Shown piece after piece: positions 18,930-64,000 of a stretch of 64,000 bases of DNA (position 1 is the first letter of the stretch; each line of letters begins with the position of its first letter). The notes below the pieces were generated by a model. It saw only the letters and a list, made by a program, of their open reading frames with translations, did not search any database and had not been told where the DNA came from. Both the position numbers and the translations under genes were made by a program. This stretch comes from Schmidtea polychroa (Eukaryota). The DNA lies in assembly GCA_044892525.1 (NCBI GenBank), contig CM097885.1:204414001-204478000 (forward strand), in the 5' to 3' direction.

Positions 18930-21600
18930 GACGGGAGCCGGACAAGGACCTCAAAAAAAAACCAGAGCTAGAAGCATCTAAATATAACTCGTCGGTTAAT
19001 GCGATGGTTAAACGATATGAAGAAATGGATACAAAATAATTTATTGCTGGTTGACGAAGCAGATATCATTTAGAAAGAAATGAAATTTACAGAGAGAACT
19101 GGCTGACAGCGAAGCAAGAAAATGGTTCCTAAAAGCATTCACGGTGAAAAGATCAATACTGAACAAGATCCAAGAACTGGGTTCAATAGAACAAGGTATT
19201 AATGAAAGATTTTCAACATTTGAGATTAAGGTATGCAAATTGATTAATGAAGTTTATGATTCAGGTATGCTGAAAAATGATTATTTCCAGACGAATTACT
19301 GGCTACAAAACTAAGTATGAAAATAAAAGATTGTGCAATGAAAGTCATGGTCTACCTCCACCAAGGACAGAAAAAATTTCACCCGGACAATGTTTTTGTT
19401 GTGGAGAAAAAGAATAAAAATTTCGAATGCCCCCTTAGAAATAAATTTCTGATTTGTGGGAAAGAAGGTCATGCATTTTGTGATTGCTATTTGTTAAAAA
19501 CAAGAAATAATACTATCCCTCGGAGAATAGTCAGTGTTCATGAAGAAACAGAAACCAATCGAGAAAAAGAATCAAAAGTAAGTGAAACTGAATATGAAGA
19601 CTACGAAAAGAATACAAAAAATGTGAAGGATTTAGTTGGATTCATTTCGTTAATGAATTTGAAGAATTAAATATAAGAAATCGAAATACTGTAGAAAAAA
19701 GAAGAAATATATATGAGACGAAATACGGAAGAAAATTTAATAAGATAGAAATAAAGAAAGTTGAAATAGAAATGTTATGGACTTCAGGAGCTTCAGTAAT
19801 GGTAATGAGTGAACATATTTGGAGGAAAGTTGGAAGTCCGAGTTTTGCAAGAAATAGAATTCTCTTATGCTGAATATTATCTGCAAACGACGAACAGCCT
19901 CTAGGAAGCACATTTATCAATTTAAGATGGTTCAAAAAGAAACGACAGATCAAAGAACTAGTGGTGAAATCTATAAAGGCAGAATTTATAGGTGGTATAG
20001 ACACTATGAACAGATTTGTGATACAACTGATGGAAGTGCAAAACATTGATGCGATGTGGATACCACAAAAACATTCATTGAAAAACAGGATTGAAAGAGC
20101 ATTGCTTTTCTGGGCAAACAAACTAACAAAAACATTGCAATCTTAGTAATGAAATTTGGAAATATTTTCATGGCTTCCTAATTTGATCTTGGGTGCACAA
20201 AACTATTAAACATGAAATAAAAAAGACGGGAAATCCAGTAATGCAACAACACATAAGAAGAGAACCAACGAATTTAGAACAAAAAGTAGAAGTTCTAATA
20301 AAAGATTTATAAAAAATTAACGTGGTAAAAATATGCAAGAACGCATGGAATGCCCCAGTAGTAATAGTAAAGAAAGCAGATGAATCGATAAGAATTTACA
20401 TGGACTACAAAGGATTAAATTTCAATACAGGAAAAAAATCATTCCCAATGCCAGATGCAAGAACATTTATAAAATTTTCGTCCATAGACTTAAGACAATA
20501 TTAAAGAAATGATCATGCGAAGCACCAATACTCGATTTCCCTAGATGAAATAGATTGTTTAATTTGGATACAGACGCCTGTTTCGGTGAAATTAGGGTGT
20601 TAAAGAATATTAGTTTTTATTTTAATTAATTTACTTTGATTTGAAAAATTGGATTTTTCGGAAATTACTATTCTATGATTCTTGTTGTTTAAATTTGTGA
20701 TTTCTGGAAATTGGAATTTGTGAAAATTTTGAAATTTCTTTGGATTTATGTTAATTTATGCCAATAAAGTTTCGTGAGATTTTAATTTATTATTTGAAGA
20801 CTGTATATTTCAATTAATTTTGAATGGATACAATTAATATAAGCAATGTCGAAGTTATGGAAAATTCAGCCAAGTTTTCTTCAAAATTTAAATTTAAAGT
20901 TAAATTCGAATGTCTTGAAAGCTTAGAAGACGATTTGGAATGGAAATTAATTTATGTCAGCAACACCTCTAATTCAGATTTAGATCAATTCCTTGATTCA
21001 GCAATAGTTAGACCAATTCCTGTTGGTCTTCATGATTTTGTTCTTGATATTAATGCTCTAGATCCCGCAAAATTCCTTCTTGATGATAATGTCGATGCAA
21101 CTGTGATTTTACTGGAAACAATTCATAAAGATCAACAATTAGTTCGAATCAATTATTTTGTCAGCAATGAATATGAAAAAGAAGATATGAATTTTGTTCA
21201 TTTTATAGAAACTTTTAATTTTACTGAAACCGGGCATTGATGAGCCAAGTAAAAGAAGATGCCAAAAACACAGTGATATTCTATATGTGGTGACTGTATT
21301 ATTATTACCACTATGAATTCCATTTATCAAGGAAAGAATTTGTTGTAATAAGAACAGAATCCATGAATATTTCATTTTGAACAAAGAAATGCATTGCTCG
21401 AACAGACCATAATAAAGCATTGGTCTTTTAAGGATTGCAAAAAGATAATAAGCCCCCAGTTCCATACAATGATAGGAAATCAATCTCCATAAGACTTTGA
21501 ACTGAACCATAGGAAAGGATAAGAACATGTTAATGCCGATGTATTGTCAAGATTTAAAGGAAATGTGTGTACACAATGTCATGAGACATGAGGATGCCAA
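18930..21600 (+). mobile_element. Degenerate Ty3/gypsy internal region (gag knuckle, protease, truncated RT, RNase H split by an Asf1 insert)
   Basis: ICGKEGHAFCDC knuckle; decayed protease (EMLWTSGASVMVM); NAWNAPVVIVKKADESIRIYMDYKGLN; EAPILDFP...FNLDTDAC; ALMSQVKEDAKNTVIFY; EHVNADVLSR. Confidence 0.85.
20824..21240 (+). pseudogene. ASF1: Asf1 histone H3/H4 chaperone copy, C-terminally truncated
   Basis: FECLESLEDDLEWKLIYV...DQFLDSAIVRPIPVGLHDFVL...LVRINYFVSNEY parallels Asf1 FECIEDLSEDLEWKIIYV...DQVLDSVLVGPVPAGRHMFVF...FIRVGYYVNNEY; similarity stops after EKEDM. Confidence 0.9.
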
Positions 21601-30060: not shown

Positions 30061-30166
30061 ATAGAAATATTGTAGCAAAACTCATATAGTCTATCAACTA
30101 ATCATAATCATATGGCACACAATTCTGTAGTATAAATAAAACATTATATTTTAAATTGCTGTAAAA

Positions 30167-30665
30167 ATGTCAAAACCTAATTTCATTGACAACTTGCTAA
30201 AAGTGGTCGTCAACAAAAACATTACGGAAAGCCTCAGTTTCCCAATCAATCGGACTGAACAAATTAATAAAGGCAATCATATCGACTACCAGAACACGAT
30301 GGATATGGAATGCCTTGAAACAAAGAAGTTTTATTTTAATCGAATCTTCAATTGCCTATTCGACGAAGAAATGAAGTGGACCCGAATAATTGTATTATAT
30401 GAAAATTATCATCGAAAAAAGTTTATGGGACTCAGAACATTACTACCAGTGGTCTCAAGAAGTAATTTATTTTATAATCTATATTTTAATAATATTAATT
30501 TTTTAGATAATCAAATCCAAATTTATTTCATGGATAGAAGCCAATGGCGGATGGGGTGTATTAAATCAACTCGCCCGAAATGCAAAGGAAATCAACGAGC
30601 ACAAAATAAAGTTTAAAAACTATATTCAACTTGCAACAGGTGTTGCTATCTAGTATATTATTTGA
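30167..30665 (+). pseudogene. Bcl-2 family gene (frameshifted, with a probable 45-bp intron)
   Basis: BH1-like CLFDEEMKWTRIIVLYE; after a +1 shift near 30403 and removal of a GT..AG intron at 30462-30506: EHYYQWSQEIIKSKFISWIEANGGWGVL (BH2); hydrophobic tail IQLATGVAI*YII broken by a stop. Confidence 0.8.
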
Positions 30666-30715
30666 CGTTTTTGAATAAAAATTAATGTAGTTATCATTCA
30701 CATTGATTTCTTCTT

Positions 30716-30784
<69 letters not shown>

Positions 30785-31479
30785 TAAAAACTTCAAAAAC
30801 TTATAACAATAAATAAATACTTACATTTTCGTCCTTTCGAAAGAAAGTTTCCAGCAGAAGTATTTATTACGTTTCCATCTAAAAGCATAATAAAAATAAT
30901 AATAATAATAATAGTAAACGATTACCGTTTATTCTATTCAAATTTACAGCTTGTCCGGCGATATTCATATTAATTTGTTGATTAAAACCTAATAATCATA
31001 TTAAAATAATAAATTTACCATTAATTCCTCCAACGATTTTTCCGTTATTTCTTTGAATTTTGTTAATGTTGTTCATGTTCATGTTGTATATAATAGTTTT
31101 GTAAAAGTGTTGAAAATATGAAAGTGTAGACTATGTAAGAGAGATATTGCAAGTTTTATTAATCGACCAAAAAAATAGAGATAGGATAGCAAAACATTCG
31201 CACACAATACATGTTTGTTTATACAAAGCAGTTAGTGATGACCTATATATTCATGTCTTTATTACTCACTGCTTTCTTACTTTGCACTGTGTATGCACTG
31301 AACGTGTAATTTATGACATAATAATATTTTGTTAAACATAAAATTAAAATAATGATATTAATAATAATAATATTAATAATAATAATAAAATATTATTTTT
31401 AAATTATAAAATATATATATATATCTTTGTCAACATCTTTCCTATTAAATAAAAAACAAAGCATACAGTATACATTTAT

Positions 31480-31860
31480 TAACCATCAAATTTTTTATAC
31501 AACAACTATGCCAAACAATGTTAACCACATGTTTGAGTCAATGGATTTTGAAACATAGTTTTATTATATACAATAGGTTTCCCAATTGTTTGCAGTTTTG
31601 ATATCAACAAATCAGGATAATAGAAACCCATAGGATCGAATACGAATATATTACTAGGTTTCACATATATAACTATCCAATGTTCTACACCAAGATGAGA
31701 CGAATGAGTATTTACGATTATGGCTTTATTATTGCTCAAATAAGGAATTTTATCGAGAGGAAAAACTCCTAAAAATTCATTTCCTAATATTAGTTTTCCA
31801 ATTCGATTAACCTGATAATAAAATTAAACAGTATCAAAAAACTTACTCCGTGACAACTTT
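31480..31860 (-). pseudogene. Polinton set A adenain-like cysteine protease
   Basis: FLGVFPLDKIP...AIIVNTHSSHLGVEHWIVIY...VFDPMG...FQNPLTQTCG*HC; contains stops. Confidence 0.85.
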
Positions 31861-31875
31861 CTATATTTCTGTATA

Positions 31876-32836
31876 CATTTATACTAGCGCGGTTCTATTT
31901 GCAGTAATTTGAACTTCATTTTCAAATACTCCATATATAATAACATTTACCGGTTCTGTAATGGCCTTTGCAAACTTTATATCCAGTCGTAAATTCCCGT
32001 TTTGTGGTAGTTGACTCTGATTTAAATCAAAATCGGGGGCTAAAACAAATGTGAAAAATTGGTATTTGGTTTTAAATTCTTAAAGAGTTATTCCACAATT
32101 CAAGTTTTTATCTAAATAACCCAGATTTTTAACAATAATCTGCATATATGTCGCACAGTAATTATCGCTTTCAAAATCTCGAGTATATGTTTCTCTATAA
32201 TCAGTATTTTTAGACAAAGTCAATGAAGAACACCAAAGTTTTTGAAAATTGAGCTGGAAGCAGTATAAGACCCATTATATTGTGTTTCACTTTGAAATGT
32301 TATCAGAATAAAATTAGGCATTCTTCTGTCACCAAATATTTGTTCTTTATAGAATGATGAAGCACCTTTAGCAATATCAAATTGTACAATTTCTTTTGTT
32401 TTTAACGGATAAATTGCATGTTTTGAATTAAGACCCAATTGATGACCAGCTAATACTGATGGGTCTACTCGAACTCTTCTCAACAATAATTTTGCATCAA
32501 CTAATTGGCATATTGGTGCACCTGCATTAGTCAGAGATAATGCAGAATCGGACTTTTTCAGTTTAATGTGTACATTTCTATCAAGGCTTTGTGAATGAAT
32601 GTATTATTTCCGCCCTCAATCTTGATATTATTAAATCCCAACACTGCATCTTTAAACAGAGTATGAAACAGGAAATTGTTCGGTATTACATCTGCATCGG
32701 CATCCAAAACCTTTCTATCTTTATCTACAACCTTGATCTGAACAGTCAATAAAGTATCGTTCAAATCTAAATATTCAGTTTGCGAACCATTAATATAAAA
32801 CTCGATATCATTTCTACTATCGGTAATTGAATTCAT
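31876..32836 (-). pseudogene. Polinton set A major capsid protein (PY/hexon-like), internally deleted and frameshifted
   Basis: IEFYINGSQTEYLDLNDTLL; NNFLFHTLFKD; LRRVRVDPSVLAGHQLGL; RMPNFILITFQSETQYNGSY; GNLRLDIKFAKAITEPVNVIIYGVFENEVQIT. Confidence 0.85.
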
Positions 32837-32868
32837 AGGAAAAACTTCCTCAAAGGTCCCAAATTCGA

Positions 32869-33290
32869 TTACCGCTTGAGACGATGGTCTATCAAATATA
32901 CATAATTCGGATTTACCACAAATAATTTTGCAAATATAGTTCCATGTCCTTTCATTCGTTTGTTTATACGTGATATTCCATGTCCTTTACGTTTTGGAGC
33001 TGGGGCTGGAGGTGTATCTTTTTGAAACATACCAGCAACTCCAGGTAGAACCTTCCCTAACTCAGCTAAAGCATTTGTTTTTAGGGATGGTAATATTTTC
33101 TGTTCATTCATAATCACGTCTTTAGCAGTTTTCATACCAAAACTGCTATACGTTTAAGAATAGGTAATAAGAATAGGTAATGAAAATCTCCCTATTGTTT
33201 TTAACCAACCTAATCCGTACTGTTTACCAACGAAATATGGTAATTCACCGCAAGATTGGCTATCACTATAGTAGTATGATTGGGGCCATC
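32869..33290 (-). pseudogene. Polinton set A basic core-like protein (PW-like)
   Basis: YYYSDSQSCGELPYFVGKQYGLGWLKTIGRFSLPIL...GMKTAKDVI...SLKTNALAELG...KRKGHG; stop and frameshift. Confidence 0.65.
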
Positions 33291-33294
33291 TAGA

Positions 33295-34620
33295 CCAGGG
33301 GCCCTCTGGACCACATACCCCTCCCCCACACCCCCCGGGAAATTTTTTTTTAAATAAAAGGTCAAGGTCAAGGTCATTTTTTTTTGTTTTATTAATTGGC
33401 CCAGCGGGCTCACACTTTTTTTCATCCCAAAAACTAATCTTCCCGCCAACGGATTTTTCTGAGCGATAGCTCATCTTAAAGACCAGTGCAAGACCTTTAA
33501 GATGTGCTATAGGTATTTTATATATCTATAATAGTTTTAATGTTATTAACATTTGATGACCACCATCTTTTCAAAGTTAAATTATTATTATTTTTCAAAA
33601 TATTATTAAGTGGCCTGGCGGAGTCATACTTTTTTTCATCCCAAAAATTAATGTTCCCGCCAACAGATTTTATTGGACGATACCTCATCTTAAAACCCAG
33701 TGCAAGACCTTTCTAATGAGATATAGATTTCTATCATACTATGCCTCATATTTTTAGAACGATGCCTCAATCGATGCCACATATTTTTAGAACGATGCCA
33801 CATATTTTTAGAACTATTACGTAATCGATGCCACATATTTTTAGAACGATGCCTAATATTTTTAGAACGATGCCACATATTTTTAGAACGATGCCTCATA
33901 TTTTTAGAACGATGCCTAATATTTTTAGAATGATTACGTCATATTTTTAGAACGATGCCTAATATTTTTAGAACGATGCCTAATATTTTTAGAACGACGC
34001 CTCTTATTTTTAGAATGATTACGTCATATTTTTAGAACGATGCATCTTATTTTTAGAATGATTACGTCATATTTTTAGAACTATTATGTAATCGATGCCT
34101 AATACTTTTTAGAACGATACCTAATATTTTTAGAATGATTACGTCATTATTTTAGAACGATGCCTCATATTTTTAGAACGATGCCTCTTATTTTTAGAAC
34201 GATGACTCACCCTATGACTCATAATTTTCCAAAATATTATTAATTGGTCCAGAGGGCTCACACTTTCTTTCATCACAAAATATAATGTTCCCGCCAACCG
34301 ATTTTATTGGACGATAGCTTATTTTAAAGCTCTGTGTAAGAACTTTCTAATGAGATATAGAGATAATTATAATCATTATTAATTTAAAAGATATTAACGC
34401 CCGCGTGGAAGATGTTATTATTATTATATACTCCGAGTTTATCCGACAAGATATTCTGTCCCCCTATGGGTACTACACACATGGGTACTGCTCACAAGGG
34501 TACTGCTCACGCTCAACAAGTCACATGGGTACTGTTCACAAAGTTACTACTAAAAATAGTCAAGACAAAACTTTAACAAAGAAATTCTTAATATTATACT
34601 TTAAATATACACTAAAACTA
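33295..34620 (+). repeat. Copy 2 of the dispersed modular repeat, expanded with three ~120-bp direct repeats and a minisatellite
   Basis: ggtcaaggtcaaggtca at ~33360; ~120-bp units at ~33395, ~33600 and ~34235 (ttcccgccaac core); terminal module at 34425-34545 with repeated gggtactgctcac. Confidence 0.75.
33741..34207. repeat. 21-bp minisatellite (catatttttagaacgatgcct), about 20 units with variants
   Basis: Head-to-tail units, variant atgattacgtcatatttttaga, no unique spacers. Confidence 0.9.
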
Positions 34621-34954
34621 AAATTTGTTTCCTATTACAAGTTTAAATACTGGTATTTATAGTTCGTATTTTTTTTTAAATATTGTCAACTCATATATAT
34701 ATATATATATATATATATAGTGGTGTGCTCACTACAACATACATTTCAAATAAAAATTTCTACCAAATTCTTTCAATAGTTAAACATGATTTATAAAAAC
34801 TTTATCAATATTAATAAATATATTTATACAAGTGTTTAACAATTGTAAGAATTGTGAAAACTATAACGAGTTTTCAAAAAAAAATTTTAGATAATAAAAC
34901 AATGTAGAAGAAATGATTTTCAAAATAAAAAGATATATTAACATTTATCACAGT

Positions 34955-35735
34955 TTAGTCTGACAATAAAATATCATCTATATCTATTTCATCATCATCA
35001 TCATTAGGATCATCACCAGAATCGAAATCTGGACTTAAACCATCGTAAAGTGGACCCACTTCCCCATCACCAGAATCGAAATCTGGACTTAATCCTCCGA
35101 ATAGTGGCCCAACTTCTTCAAATATTTGATCATAATTTATGTCATCTAGTGCTAAATATGACCATATGCGAGACTGGAATTTTTCCCGACCCAAAACCGC
35201 TTGTCATCGTTGTTTGACAACGCGATTTTATTGTTTTTAAATGTGTACAATTGATGGTTCCGCGTCCCTATCTTACTTTGTGGCACAGAAAATACTACGT
35301 TGTTATTGTAGCATTTTAAATATGAATCGTGCCTAATTTCTGTACCTATTAACCTGACTCCCTTTGCTTTTAAATGATCTTTAGTCCCTAACAAACTATA
35401 GCACTTGGGTCTTAAGAAAACCCATTCCTTATACCCTAGACCTTTACTTTCATCTTTAAATTTACCTATCACAGAATCAAGGTTTCTAGAGTATAAGGGA
35501 TGTGCAGGGTCATAGTTGGAAGTGTCTAAAAGATTGTCACGAACCATTGCCGACAAAAGAGTGTCAAGCTTACAGTGCCTAACCTCAAGAAAAAAGGAGT
35601 CAGTATCGCCGGCAACGATATTTATTTCACATTTAAATTCATTTCTATATTTAGCCAATTCTATATACTGTAACTGGTACATCATCAGTTTAGACAGGTC
35701 TAGTACCGTTTGGCCAATGTAGCTAGGCCTGTCTA
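34955..35735 (-). pseudogene. Polinton set A protein-primed PolB, C-terminal fragment only, followed by an acidic repeat segment
   Basis: RPSYIGQTVLDLSKLMMY, AGDTDSFF, LDTSNY, IGKFKDE, LRPKCYS, KAKGV, DDKRF...LAYGH; 5' truncated at ~35735. Confidence 0.9.
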
Positions 35736-38700
35736 AACTGAGGAAGAACCCTATGAAAAAGAAAACTATAATTGGGATAACTTTAACCATGTAGATAAAT
35801 TTGAACAACCATTTATATCCTCTTCATCTTTAGAGTATATAAAAAGAAATAAACAAAAAATAAAAAACTCAATGGATGATGCTATAAAAAAATTTGGTAA
35901 ATCAAGATTTAATGTTATCATATATAAAATTAGAATCCACTCAAAATATTGGAGGGGTGAAGATGTAAACACAGCAGTCCTAGACCGTATTATTGAAACA
36001 CCTTATAATTATTTATTCTCAACCCAGGGATTTAAAAAAAATTAAAGATATTATTCATAAAGTTGAAGAAGAGCATAGAGTGGTTGAACAAGAATTAGGA
36101 GAGTCAAACCTAAAATTCCATTCATTTCAATCACTTGAAATCGAATATTGGAGAGGAGCACCTCCAAACCCTAAATCATATATCCCTACCCCCTTTACTT
36201 CACATTATAAATATTCGAAATAATGATAATAAATGTTTCCAATGGTCAATACTAGCACATTTACGTCCTCAAGAAAATCATAAAGAAAGACCTGCAAAAT
36301 ATAAGCAATATGAAAATGAATTAATATATCCAAAAGGATTTAAACACCCAATGAAGATTGAATACATTCCAAAATTTGAAAAATTAAATAATATTAAACT
36401 TAACATTTATGAATATATTGGTCAGGTGGGTGATAGGAAACACATTATCCCAATTCACATTTCAAATATGGAATTATTAGAACAAGATAAAAATAGAGAA
36501 ATATATCTTTTAATATTACAAGAAAAACAAACTTATAGGGAATATGATGATCTAGATGAGGAAGAACAATATTTAAATATTCAAGAGTTAAATCTTGAAG
36601 AAGAGCAAGAAGAAGACATTGAGATGAAACAATATTATATCCTCATAAAAAACTTTCAAAGTTTTATGCGATCAAAAAGTCACCACAGTGGTGGAACAAC
36701 ATGTAAACGTTGTCTATATTATTCAGCCTCAAACATTGCAGCATTTAAACATGAAAGATTATGTTTTAAGAACCTACCAGCATTAATTAAAATGCCAAGC
36801 AAAGAAAAGTCTAACATGCACTTTAAAAACTTTTCAAACTTACTAGAATCAGTGGGAGTAATATATGGAGACTTTGAAGCTATAAATATAAAACAAGATT
36901 TAGAGCAAGAATATTTAAAAATAATAGAAAAAAATAATCTATTAGAATCTTGGAGGAACGACCCTCGGGATAATCAACGAGGATGGGAAAGTATGAAAAA
37001 CTTTCTAGACTTAAATAATAAATCTTATACAGTAAAACTAACAAAACAAGTAGCATCAGCTTATAAACTATTTTTTAAAAGTAACTACCCCGAACTTATA
37101 GAATCTAAAGAATATTCATATAGAGGAATCACAGAAGAAGAAACTCTAAATCATTTTCTTAAAGATATAAATGATTTAGAACATCAAGTATTTAAAATAT
37201 TAAAAACAAACTTTCTAATAAACTTTTCAGAACAACAATGGGAAGAATATGAAAACGCAACAACTTGTTGGATGTGCAAACAACCATTTGAGAATTCTGA
37301 AAGAGGTCATTCTGAAGGTCATTCTGAAGGTCATTCTGAAAGTCTTGAAGAGGAAGAACAAAGACTATTTCACGAAGGACAAGAAAGACATGAAAACATA
37401 AAAGTCCCAGATCATGACCACTTTAAAAAACTAAACAACTTTACGGGTGCAGCACATAAAAACTGCAATATTAATTGTAAAAGACCAAATTTTGTACCAG
37501 TTATATTCCATAATCTTTTTGGATATGACATCCACTTATTCATAAAACATTTAGCTGTAAATGCTAAAAACTCTTTCAAGGTTATAGGACTTACAAAAGA
37601 AAAATATAAATGTGTTCAATATGGACGATTGAAGTTTATAGATTCCCTAAACTTTCTATCAATGTCCTTGGATGGAATAGCTAAAACAATGAAACCAGAA
37701 GACTTCACCTACACAATAGAAAAAGTATTAGTAAAAAATAATATTCCCAGGAGGAATATAAAACCTGTTTAGCAAAGGGAATCTATCCTTATGATTATAT
37801 AGATTCTTTTGATCGTTATAATGAAACAGAACTACCAGGTCTAGAGGAATTCTTTTCAACATTAAATCAAACAGATATAAGTGACCAGGAATATACCCGA
37901 GCAAATAAAATGTATCAATTATTCATATGTAAAAACATTGGGGATTATACTGACATGTATTTATCATTAGATGTTTATATCCTTGCAGACTGTTTTGAAG
38001 GATTTTGCAAGGCATTTGAATTAAAACCCTACAACTATATAACATCTCCATCTCTAGCTTGGGATATATTATTATATACTATGTGGACCTCCAGCTCTGA
38101 GTCCATAGAACTATTAACTGAACTCGACATGTTTAATGTACTTAAAGAAAATATTCGAGGGGGTGTTAGCTCCGTGATGGGAGACCGAGAAATCACTGCA
38201 AATAACTTCCTATCTCTCTATAAGAAATTCTTTAGTGAAGATCCAAATGCAGACTATATACAAATAAAAACAGAAGAAGATTCAAAATTAATAAAGGAAG
38301 GATTATCAAATCCATCAGAAATAATGTATATAGATGCAACTGCTCTATATTCAGGAGTAATGACTCAATACCTTCCAATTGATAACTTCATTCAGGTTGC
38401 TGTCCCAGAAGGTGCTGTCCCAGAGGAAAAGGATCTACTCATGAATCAAATATTATCAACAGAAAAAGATTCAGAAGTGGGATATATAATAGAATGTGAT
38501 TTAGAATACCCCAATGATATAAAATATATTACTAGATACTTTCCATTTGCACCAGTGAAAAGGAAAGTAGATTCCAATGAATTATCATCCCAACAAGATA
38601 GACCTACAACCACAAAACTTTTATGTGATCAAACTGATAAAACTTATTATCTTTGTCACTATAGGTTGTTACAATTTTATCTTTCTCATGGGATGAAAAT

Positions 38701-62247: not shown

Positions 62248-62480
62248 AGTAGTGGGGGTATGGCCTTCACGGACGCTGACCCATTTCATGTTTCCCCCTT
62301 CACTCGCTTGGGCCTGGGTCCGTGAGGATTGGATCCGTGTATTTGAGGGTTTTATGACTGAAAGATGTAAATATAGGGGGTTAAAAGATGAAAAAGTTTA
62401 GTTTTTTAGGCTGAATTTGAAGGGGCTTGACACTGGAGGGGTGGGGTGGTTTGGTCCGTGAAGGCCATACCCCCACTACT
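62248..62480. repeat. 233-bp GC-rich segment with perfect 27-bp inverted ends starting AGTAGT
   Basis: agtagtgggggtatggccttcacggac (62248-62274) / gtccgtgaaggccatacccccactact (62454-62480); no 6-bp TSD. Confidence 0.9.
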
Positions 62481-63072
62481 TGTTTTCAACTTTGTTTTGA
62501 ACTCTGTTTATAAACCATGACACCTTTTGGGTTGAAAATATCTGTTTTTACCCGTATATCATCAGGACATTGTTGTGTGAAATCTAGAAATATATACCCA
62601 AGCGGTATTTTTGTAGCATCTTGAAATGCATTGATAAAAAAATTACGGTTATTAGGATATGGTTATCGTCCAAGAAAATCAATGACAGTTGCATCTCTAG
62701 GATTCTTGAAAATAACTAAATATTGTACATTTAAATTACGTGTTCGATGTGCACCACGTTGATGAAATAGATTTTGTGTTATGAAAATAACTGTTACACC
62801 AACATGTCTGCTGATTTTTGTTAATAAATTATTAAAATCCTTTTCTTTATTGGCTTCTTGGTACAAATCATCGATAATGATGACATCATCTTTTTCAACT
62901 GGCAGAAACTTGATTGCGTCTATCCATGTTCTTCGTCGGCGCCCCTATGCCAATAAATATTGTTGAATTTTGTTTTGAATAAATTTGATTTTAGTAATTT
63001 ACAAACAAATAATGTTTTTCCGCTACCACTTGGACCAACGATTTGGTATACTGCATCATTTCGTAATTCCAT
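62481..63072 (-). pseudogene. Polinton set A packaging ATPase
   Basis: MELRNDAVYQIVGPSGSGKT; VIIIDDL; SRHVGVTVIFITQNLF; NVQYLVIFKNPRD; FQDATKIPLGYIFLD; has a frameshift and a stop. Confidence 0.9.
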
Positions 63073-63137
63073 TTTTTAAATTTAAACTACGTAATTATTG
63101 TTTATATTGATAATTTAAATGAACTCCGTTTTAAAAC

Positions 63138-63184
<47 letters not shown>

Positions 63185-63203
63185 TTATAATTATTTCATT
63201 AAA

Positions 63204-63665
63204 ATGCTTTCAAATATAAATTACAGGGCAAAAGCTGATGTATCAAAAAAGGTATTTCCAATGGGGAAACCACAACAACTTATCAATAGAAGTAAAAAAT
63301 ATCCCATAATATATTTCAAAACTGGTAAATGTAGAATTATGGGGTGTAAGGAAATAATCAAAGCTAGTGAATATAATGTTTATGATTTAGAAATACAATC
63401 GATAACCGTAACTTCCGATATGGGTTTTTCTTGTAATTTAAATAAATTGGCTAAATTAATACCATGTGTTTACGAACCAGAATTATTTCCAGCTTTGAGA
63501 TATATAAAATATAACCCTATGTGTATAAATATATTCACTAGTCGTAAGATAGTAATTCTTGGAATAAAAAATATTGATTACAAATGTATAGTTGATAAAA
63601 TCATATCTGAAATTAAATCAATAATTGAAGGAAAAGATTTTTTTAGATTTTTTATTATCACTTAA
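63204..63665 (+). CDS. Miniature TATA-binding-protein-like gene, 153 aa, intronless
   Basis: Repeat 2 DLEIQSITVTSDMGF...YEPELFPALRY...INIFTSRKIVILGIK parallels TBP DFKIQNMVGSCDVKF...YEPELFPGLIY...LLIFVSGKVVLTGAK; repeat 1 reduced to IIYFKTGKCRIMGCK. Confidence 0.85.
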   Translation: MLSNINYRAKADVSKKVFPMGKPQQLINRSKKYPIIYFKTGKCRIMGCKEIIKASEYNVYDLEIQSITVTSDMGFSCNLNKLAKLIPCVYEPELFPALRYIKYNPMCINIFTSRKIVILGIKNIDYKCIVDKIISEIKSIIEGKDFFRFFIIT

Positions 63666-64000
63666 TTAATTATTTTAAAAATCATGTGATTGCAAATTCG
63701 ATGCAACTGAAATGCGTGATTATGATTGGTCGAAATCTAATTGGCTGATGATTATTTATAACAAAATATTTTTGGTTTAGTTATCATTTTTAAACCATGT
63801 ACAATATTAAAAGTTCAACTATAGCAGCCATGAAAGAACATGAACATTATGGTAAATTTAAATTTTTTAATATTAATTGTATTTATCATATTATTATTTA
63901 CAGATGAATATCACGCAATAATACTGGAAAGATTGTATTTTTATTACATGCAAATGTATGATATTCTCAAAGATCGAGATGTTGCAATAATCCCAGATTT

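Follow-up and report, generated by a model that had tools for sequence, protein, structure and literature searches.

The window analyzed here is a 64,000-nt stretch of the Schmidtea polychroa genome (assembly GCA_044892525.1, contig CM097885.1, positions 204,414,001 to 204,478,000), and near its end a short gene resembling the TATA-binding protein (TBP) lies head-to-head with the packaging ATPase of a Polinton. The question is what a TBP-like gene is doing in a mobile element. The initial annotation suggested that the Polinton brings its own basal transcription factor or a TBP decoy, or else that the gene, open among broken neighbors, has been domesticated. The following features of the window are relevant.

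63204–63665, plus strand: mini-TBP gene, an open ORF of 153 aa.
63141–63176, plus strand: (TA)18 tract before the mini-TBP gene, apparently a microsatellite expansion of the 8-bp TATATATA box.
63099–63106, minus strand: TATAAACA box, 34 nt upstream of the ATPase ATG, a candidate mini-TBP target present in 28 of 29 copies from the own genome.
62486–63072, minus strand: A32-like packaging ATPase of the mini-TBP family, broken by two in-frame stops and one deletion with a frameshift.
62505–62512, minus strand: second TATAAACA box, within the last ATPase codons (Y-K-Q).
62248–62480, no strand assigned: 233-bp unit with 27-nt perfect inverted arms starting with AGTAGT.
63797–64000, plus strand: start of the next gene (approximately 124–131 aa, Cys-rich C-terminus, no Pfam match); outside the window, an OB-fold, SSB-like gene follows in the same element.

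The ATPase ATG is at 63072 on the minus strand, and the spacer (63073–63203) is exactly 131 nt, as described initially, with the reported (TA)n tract occupying 36 nt of it and an Inr-like TCAT between the tract and the mini-TBP ATG. The 153-aa ORF is real, and its product is predicted to form a two-repeat TBP saddle. It matches the Pfam TBP domain (PF00352, E 5.3e-13, 49.1 bits with the cut-off of 22.9) over residues 62–125, in agreement with the convincing second repeat noted from the sequence, and in a PDB sequence search its best matches are archaeal TBPs, then eukaryotic TBPs. An AlphaFold model with 47 input sequences (pLDDT 93.9, pTM 0.82) matches TBP across both halves, residues 1–143 being superposed on yeast TBP 66–240 and human TBP 164–338 (Z 12.6, rmsd 2.9, 143 aligned residues), with 25–30% identity to cellular TBP. 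The first non-TBP structure scores Z 6.3, compared to 12.6 for TBP, and Foldseek against PDB yields 44 matches at E<=0.001, all of which, among the matches listed, are TBP entries. In the model, the N-terminal repeat (approximately residues 1–59) retains four strands, with no H1 and with H2 reduced to a four-residue helix, consistent with the shrunken first repeat described earlier, while the C-terminal repeat (approximately residues 60–152) is complete and carries the YEPELFP stirrup.

DNA-face and stirrup residues were compared among 50 close members of the family (the query and 49 of 52 matches, three fragments being dropped), 97 distant members (of 146; 140–215 aa) and 23 cellular-type TBPs, with yeast numbering derived from the 176-residue TBP stretch corresponding to yeast 64–239 and Arabidopsis 22–197. 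As the distant set was retrieved with a profile of the close set, residues common to both are partly selected. Instead of the four intercalating phenylalanines proposed initially we find three: F38, F95, and F111, corresponding to yeast F116, F190, and F207, each present in 50/50 close members. The column of yeast F99 contains Phe in 0/50 close and 0/97 distant members, compared to 23/23 cellular-type TBPs; at this position MAFFT gives a gap and hhalign gives Q24, and F18 of the VFP motif aligns with Tyr of the first stirrup. The TFIIB-stirrup glutamates E186 and E188 (yeast numbering) are each present in 50/50 close members, and so by sequence the stirrup is that of a canonical TBP; Arabidopsis E144 and E146 are TFIIB contacts of TBP (passages in PMC10005294).

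The DNA face is, on the contrary, not the canonical one (N69/N159, V71/V161, V122/V213, T124/T215, L114/L205). Eight DNA-face positions are fixed to residues unlike those of TBP, and N159S, V71N, V161T, V122R, T124M, L205N, and T215L are fixed or nearly fixed in the family. V122R is present in 50/50 close and 94/97 distant members, T124M in 50/50 and 96/97, L205N in 50/50 and 96/97, and N159S in 50/50 close members (N159S/T in 50/50 and 97/97); among close members, I194R and V203C are found in 50/50 each, V71N in 49/50, V161T in 47/50, and N69 is kept in 48/50. Positions 194, 203, and 205 are those changing the specificity in TBPm3 (passages in PMC1636458). In its N-terminal half, mini-TBP lacks F99 and has acquired R44, M46, and N6. 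According to passages in PMC1636458 and PMC10005294, the 3′ half of the TATA box is contacted by the N-terminal repeat of TBP and kinked between base pairs 7 and 8, and TBP disfavors a GC/CG pair, whose amino group protrudes into the minor groove. Distant members of 160–190 aa share the same DNA face and retain both H1 and H2, which suggests that respecification probably preceded shrinkage.

A search of the own genome (781 Mb) produced 4084 candidates, and all 150/150 scored ones are 90–100% identical. In 27 of the 30 copies fetched, mini-TBP and the ATPase are arranged head-to-head, and in longer neighborhoods the gene order is pPolB, MCP, pVII-like, penton, integrase, small core genes, ATPase, and mini-TBP, followed by a 124-aa ORF, a 140-aa ORF, and a Bcl-2-like ORF. 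Three of 13 neighborhoods contain complete copies of 15.4–15.5 kb, with terminal inverted repeats (TIRs) starting with AGTAGG and 6-bp target site duplications (TSDs; CCCCCT, ATTTAT, and AACTCG), the remaining ones being nested, rearranged, or cut by fetch boundaries. An additional subfamily with 58% identity has the identical layout. Mini-TBP belongs to the regular gene set of a Polinton family that is present in high copy number and has TIRs and 6-bp TSDs.

Pfam backs the pPolB, integrase, and ATPase of the family (DNA_pol_B_2, E 2.5e-28, and rve, E 7.9e-8, in another copy, neither lying within the truncated window copy; Pox_A32, E 2e-7, for an intact ATPase relative), and the 406-aa and 355-aa proteins have no relevant match. 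The labels MCP, penton, pVII, and core are presumptive, based on gene order and, for MCP and penton, also on mutual similarity across loci. An adenovirus-type protease was not seen among ORFs of at least 75 aa in one fully listed own-genome element; protease matches are present in the relatives L080, L094, and L150. The 140-aa neighbor has a predicted OB fold and is SSB-like, its top matches (ASFV CP312R, DUF2815, Enc34 SSB, and T7 gp2.5) being middling (Z 7.5–6.6, rmsd 2.9–4.2, 102–125 aligned residues), and the ESM Atlas contained no usable match for it. Bcl-2-like ORFs near the family end (window 30167–30616, plus strand; L050:2603–2905, minus strand) match Pfam Bcl-2 with E 0.047 and 0.0016, under the cut-off; Bcl2 homologs are mentioned for adintoviruses in passages of PMC8502044. 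The two main subfamilies have opposite pPolB orientations (L051/L033 vs. L052/L035), and between them pPolB is approximately 65% alike and the virion module approximately 90% alike, a contrast suggesting module exchange.

The mini-TBP element in the window is truncated at its left edge at 62481, abutting the 233-bp unit, which appears to be the right end of an adjoining TBP-less Polinton. This second family spans approximately 35836–62480, and the intact-looking genes at 54–62 kb, including capsid, integrase, and protease, belong to it; a link of mini-TBP to this capsid/integrase cluster was considered and rejected, and a complete copy of the second family beside the window contains no TBP gene. 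The second TATAAACA box elsewhere precedes a core-protein gene, which is missing in the window copy.

Several further observations concern the window. The gene following mini-TBP (63797–63903) has an apparent 52-nt GT-AG intron at 63852–63903 that keeps the frame, with no read joint listed. In the TBP-less family, a PLA2-like domain is fused to the N-terminus of the integrase (59126–60538, minus strand). On the far side of the TBP-less element, 30085–35738 holds another piece of the mini-TBP family, in rearranged form (parts of MCP and pVII-like genes, a TIR-like sequence, the pPolB end), possibly but not necessarily the remainder of the mini-TBP insertion. The TSDs AACTCG and TCGGAG both come from a short repeat also found near 60700 (60640–60720), hinting at a preferred insertion target. 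An intronless ORF for an ASF1-like histone chaperone (E 1.2e-37) is located at 20824–21240 on the plus strand.

Selection was assessed on 29 of 30 copies readable in frame; mean pairwise dN/dS over these 29 is 0.25, with intact copies over-represented, as the copies were picked by score. The dN/dS values are 0.006/0.072 between two subfamilies and 0.29/1.4–1.8 to the third. Among shared variants, 13 are synonymous and 11 non-synonymous, and among singletons 7 and 20, respectively, compared to 4.2 non-synonymous sites per synonymous site. For the window copy the average dN is 0.037 and dS 0.040, compared to one of its nearest copies dN (0.033) exceeds dS (0.014), and it carries private changes, one of them at Gly114 (Gly in 27/29 copies). 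The IFTS..K motif, used initially as a mark of the second repeat, is indeed present in the window copy, but is its own variant, Ala112 and Gly114 each being found in 27/29 copies. To judge by these substitutions, the family is under purifying selection, and the window copy is a truncated, neutrally decaying insertion. Of the earlier contrast between an intact ORF and broken neighbors, the broken ATPase stands, but the open ORF is no sign of selection on the window copy, and the domestication of this copy was rejected in favor of a drifting insertion.

Outside the own genome, a protein search identified 52 homologs among 73 candidates, mostly of 144–175 aa and 38–56% identical, except one 89% fragment, and a profile search gave 56 clusters at E<=1e-30. 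A Polinton hallmark gene is present in 39 of 80 metagenome loci and in 28 of 34 loci of at least 3 kb, one of the six unlinked loci of this length being an ordinary eukaryotic TBP. Linkage to Polintons, on which the initial interpretation depended, therefore survives. The special role given to the head-to-head layout and the long (TA)n tract does not: among metagenome loci with both genes the ATPase is downstream on the same strand in 22/27 and head-to-head in 2/27. The position of mini-TBP varies among relatives, which have it ahead of the ATPase in tandem, behind MCP and protease, or behind pPolB, and the TA tract varies from 8 to 36 nt among 29 copies, with 8–14 nt in 24 of them. Hence, both the layout as a conserved feature and the long tract as a functional one were rejected.

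The host has an intron-containing TBP and at least five TBP paralogs, divergent and in some cases intronless. In a quick maximum-likelihood tree of 82 of 181 rows (17 close and 30 distant members drawn at random, together with every row outside these two sets; long branches, no giant-virus TBP among the rows), a branch with SH-aLRT 96 separates 55 element rows from five host genes and the eukaryotic and archaeal-type TBPs. The family groups apart from host paralogs, without the nesting in them and the single locus expected of a host TBP/TRF retrocopy. IMG/VR scans with the family alignment, a TBP of unknown origin, a plant-type TBP, and the MCP alignment found no relative, and the IMG/VR ATPase scan found three distant contigs, which were left out of the analysis; BFVD yielded no close relative of mini-TBP, and the GTDB scan returned mostly Methanobrevibacter TBPs.

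Other Polintons also carry TBPs. A different element contains a near-canonical two-repeat TBP (L150:8624–9193; F99, N69, and N159 kept) without the ATAAAC box described below, and a third kind of TBP is found in the Polintons L146–L148; TBP may have been acquired or retuned by Polintons more than once. Accessory genes of related elements encode a ubiquitin-conjugating enzyme and a KilA-N protein (L076:225–719; L071:4008–4316) and, to judge by a motif, presumably a phosphatase-like protein (L120:7052–7909). We also observe an intronless, divergent TFIIB-like gene of 301 aa (L259:4575–5477, L260:4585–5487, L261:4536–5438), with approximately 13 further matches in genome G000 (C1, 23.8–24.2 Mb, and C3, 38–39 Mb); the copies are clustered and near-identical, and no Polinton genes are directly beside the three fetched. 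The likely host TFIIB gene is split by introns, and the best TFIIB-family matches are presumably Brf-like.

Candidate targets were sought in upstream windows compared by gene class after removal of near-identical genes. The most frequent 6-mer ahead of the ATPase, MCP, and core genes is ATAAAC, which is also recovered in the top 7-mer de novo. ATAAAC[AG] is present in the sense orientation in 33/36 ATPase/MCP/core windows (antisense, 1/36), compared to 6/57 early genes (mini-TBP 2/48, SSB-like 4/9; Fisher p 1e-15, which overstates the support, as related elements are not independent) and 240/6466 background windows (3.7%). Two of the three misses are from L150, and in the third a box precedes the ATG by 16 nt. 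Nearly all virion-side genes of mapped elements have a box at a distance of 100 nt or less. Before the ATPases, the distance from box to ATG is 31–37 nt in 21 of 29 rows; the flanks cannot be aligned, and the spacing is seen in any upstream context, including head-to-head. This distance is close to the shortest TATA-to-ATG spacing of mini-TBP genes, 35–36 nt. The pair I-N is encoded as ATAAAC in 8/8 pVII-like genes vs. 22/201 in ORF bodies, which indicates that boxes within coding sequence fix the codon choice and explains the I-N-K and Y-K-Q peptides as embedded DNA signals.

Three lineages serve as box-negative controls: the box precedes 0/12 ORFs of the TBP-less family, 0/11 listed ORFs of L150, whose TBP keeps F99/N159 and a near-canonical face, and 0/13 listed ORFs of the L146/L147 lineage, which has a different TBP face and shows few virion genes. 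Outside virion genes the box is found, apart from the SSB-like genes, before one polymerase and several accessory genes. Some boxes overlie a stop codon or precede the ATG by 7–20 nt, which leaves too little room for a TATA role. No Inr can be seen after the box, and over a whole 9-kb stretch the count itself is not above chance (11 boxes vs. 7.5 expected; 31/200 shuffles). The mini-TBP genes themselves are preceded by a canonical TATA in 25/48 cases, many having TATAWAWR with TCA(T/C) at +31 to +33 (a short-tract copy has the Inr at +31), and the TA tract of the own family looks like an expansion of this TATAWAWR-type box.

These patterns make it fairly probable that mini-TBP is a promoter-specific viral initiation factor, predicted to bind its own box (T/C/G)ATAAAC(A/G). 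Host TBP would first transcribe the mini-TBP gene from its host-type TATA/Inr promoter. The remodeled N-terminal half of mini-TBP would then read C at box position 7, disfavored by cellular TBP, and the protein would recruit host TFIIB via E91/E93, with packaging, core, capsid, and integrase genes then driven via host RNA polymerase II. The loss of H1/H2 may free mini-TBP from TFIIA/TAF/Mot1-type partners, and the genes behind the box would be “late” ones. Between the two roles offered initially, basal factor or decoy, the promoter-like box favors the former. The complete scheme, a two-step cascade run by one 150-residue protein in a widespread Polinton lineage, is more tentative, with a chance somewhat below even; here a natural altered-specificity TBP with its own 8-bp box would suffice to bring host TFIIB and Pol II to the virion genes, needing neither TFIID nor a viral polymerase.

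A Hoogsteen pair at TATAAAC is not used as support here, a literature search having found nothing on this point. We take C(–25) of the adenovirus major late box to be box position 7. Host TBP may also read the box, as wild-type TBP has been crystallized on the C(–25) variant of this box (title of PDB entry 1qn3). TRF2, which lost the intercalating phenylalanines, does not bind TATA boxes (passages in PMC10005294), and the loss of one Phe in mini-TBP, being parallel, counts against the proposed binding.

It is unlikely, in comparison, that host TBP or a forkhead protein reads ATAAAC[AG], with mini-TBP acting as a decoy that titrates TFIIB or TBP inhibitors. ATAAACA does fit the forkhead consensus RYAAAYA, the stirrup is invariant with one intercalating Phe lost, and the C(–25) structure is that of wild-type TBP. 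However, GTAAACA is present in only 1/36 windows, as opposed to 29 with ATAAACA and 8 with ATAAACG, orientation and spacing are strict, eight invariant novel DNA-face residues would be needless for a decoy, and the box is missing where TBP is absent or differently faced.

Quite improbable is the box being an initiator or a 3′-end (polyadenylation or termination) signal, and mini-TBP a non-selective TBP substitute. Variants of AATAAA serve in 3′-end signals, and TATAAA, CATAAA, and GATAAA resemble them; the box often overlaps the upstream stop codon, and in L076 lies near convergent gene ends. Against this, the base before the box (n = 54) is T in 34, C in 14, G in 5, and A in 1 case, A thus being found in 1/54 vs. 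544/1200 in the background, so that AATAAA is avoided, and the box precedes ATPases without a same-strand upstream gene. Four runs, comprising contigs of what we guess to be RNA from two studies, with start, strand, and level not readable, list no spliced joint. In two contigs of one of them, X4, a poly(A) loose end follows a canonical AATAAA behind the SSB-like gene, approximately 70 nt upstream of the nearest box, hinting that the family is transcribed using normal 3′ signals; one piece of another run, X1, covers a part of the mini-TBP gene and may be DNA.

No better a prospect is mini-TBP binding the box as a repressor, or in replication or packaging, rather than in activation: the lost H1/H2 surfaces could block a productive pre-initiation complex, and the KSHV TBP mimic also affects DNA replication (passages in PMC6541308), but the TFIIB-binding glutamates are invariant, and boxes are at a TATA-like distance before genes. 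A decayed host retrocopy, or a gene domesticated at the window locus, has a negligible probability: the gene is intronless and open beside a broken ATPase, and some host TBP paralogs are intronless too, but hundreds of near-identical copies reside inside Polintons, the quick tree separates the 55 family rows from the five host genes, and the window copy has the excess of dN over dS and the private Gly114 change.

The favored reading, an initiation factor with its own box, can be compared with known systems. With cellular TBP (yeast Spt15, human, archaeal) mini-TBP shares the saddle, the E-P-E-L-F stirrup, three intercalating phenylalanines, and N69, but is approximately 25–30 residues shorter and encoded by a mobile element. 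TRF2/TLF (TBPL1) is a TBP paralog without the intercalating Phe that acts at other promoters (passages in PMC10005294), but it is a host gene of full two-repeat length, and the mini-TBP family groups with no host paralog. Nucleocytoviricota TBPs (Heterosigma akashiwo virus 01, ASFV B263R-like) are virus-encoded with the same fold (best E 6.5e-7), but are longer proteins with at most 22% identity to mini-TBP among the matches listed. Nucleocytoviricota usually bring their own polymerase.

The working analogy is provided by the herpesvirus TBP mimics ORF24, BcRF1, and UL87, which act at TATT late promoters (passages in PMC6541308): in both cases a DNA virus of the nucleus that encodes no RNA polymerase would combine a TBP-like factor with a variant box before structural genes. 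Here the variant box, a candidate target, is likewise before structural genes, in the 33/36 windows with ATAAAC[AG], but is a different one, the TATT box differing at position 4 and the box of the mini-TBP family at position 7 (C). The herpesvirus factors are large proteins that contact Pol II directly and depend on five further viral proteins (passages in PMC6541308), whereas mini-TBP has 153 aa and consists of the TBP core only; no herpes-like partner set was found in the mini-TBP Polinton family, and BcRF1 is a weak structural match to the mini-TBP model (E 0.019).

With Polintons, Mavericks, and adintoviruses (Starrett et al., 2021, passages in PMC8502044) the family has in common pPolB, integrase, ATPase, TIRs, the 6-bp TSD, and presumably MCP and penton. 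The only Polinton-related mention of TBP that we found is a figure-legend label in Starrett et al. (PMC8502044; preprint 10.1101/697771), and beyond this label we found no family, residue, or promoter analysis of a Polinton TBP in the text of PMC8502044 with one supplement. The texts of PMC11161782, PMC10748475, PMC11131425, 10.64898/2026.06.19.733378, and PMC8097293 mention neither TATA nor TBP; supplements or Repbase could hold annotations.

The finding bears on how virion genes are timed and driven in Polintons, which encode capsids without an RNA polymerase, and the box helps to annotate genes in mini-TBP Polintons. If the proposed mechanism is true, this would be the smallest viral late-transcription switch, and an independent instance of the strategy used by herpesviruses, in a much smaller genome. 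Mini-TBP and its box would then form an orthogonal TBP–promoter pair, a natural counterpart of the engineered TBPm3, and the elements would keep a regulated virion program of their own.
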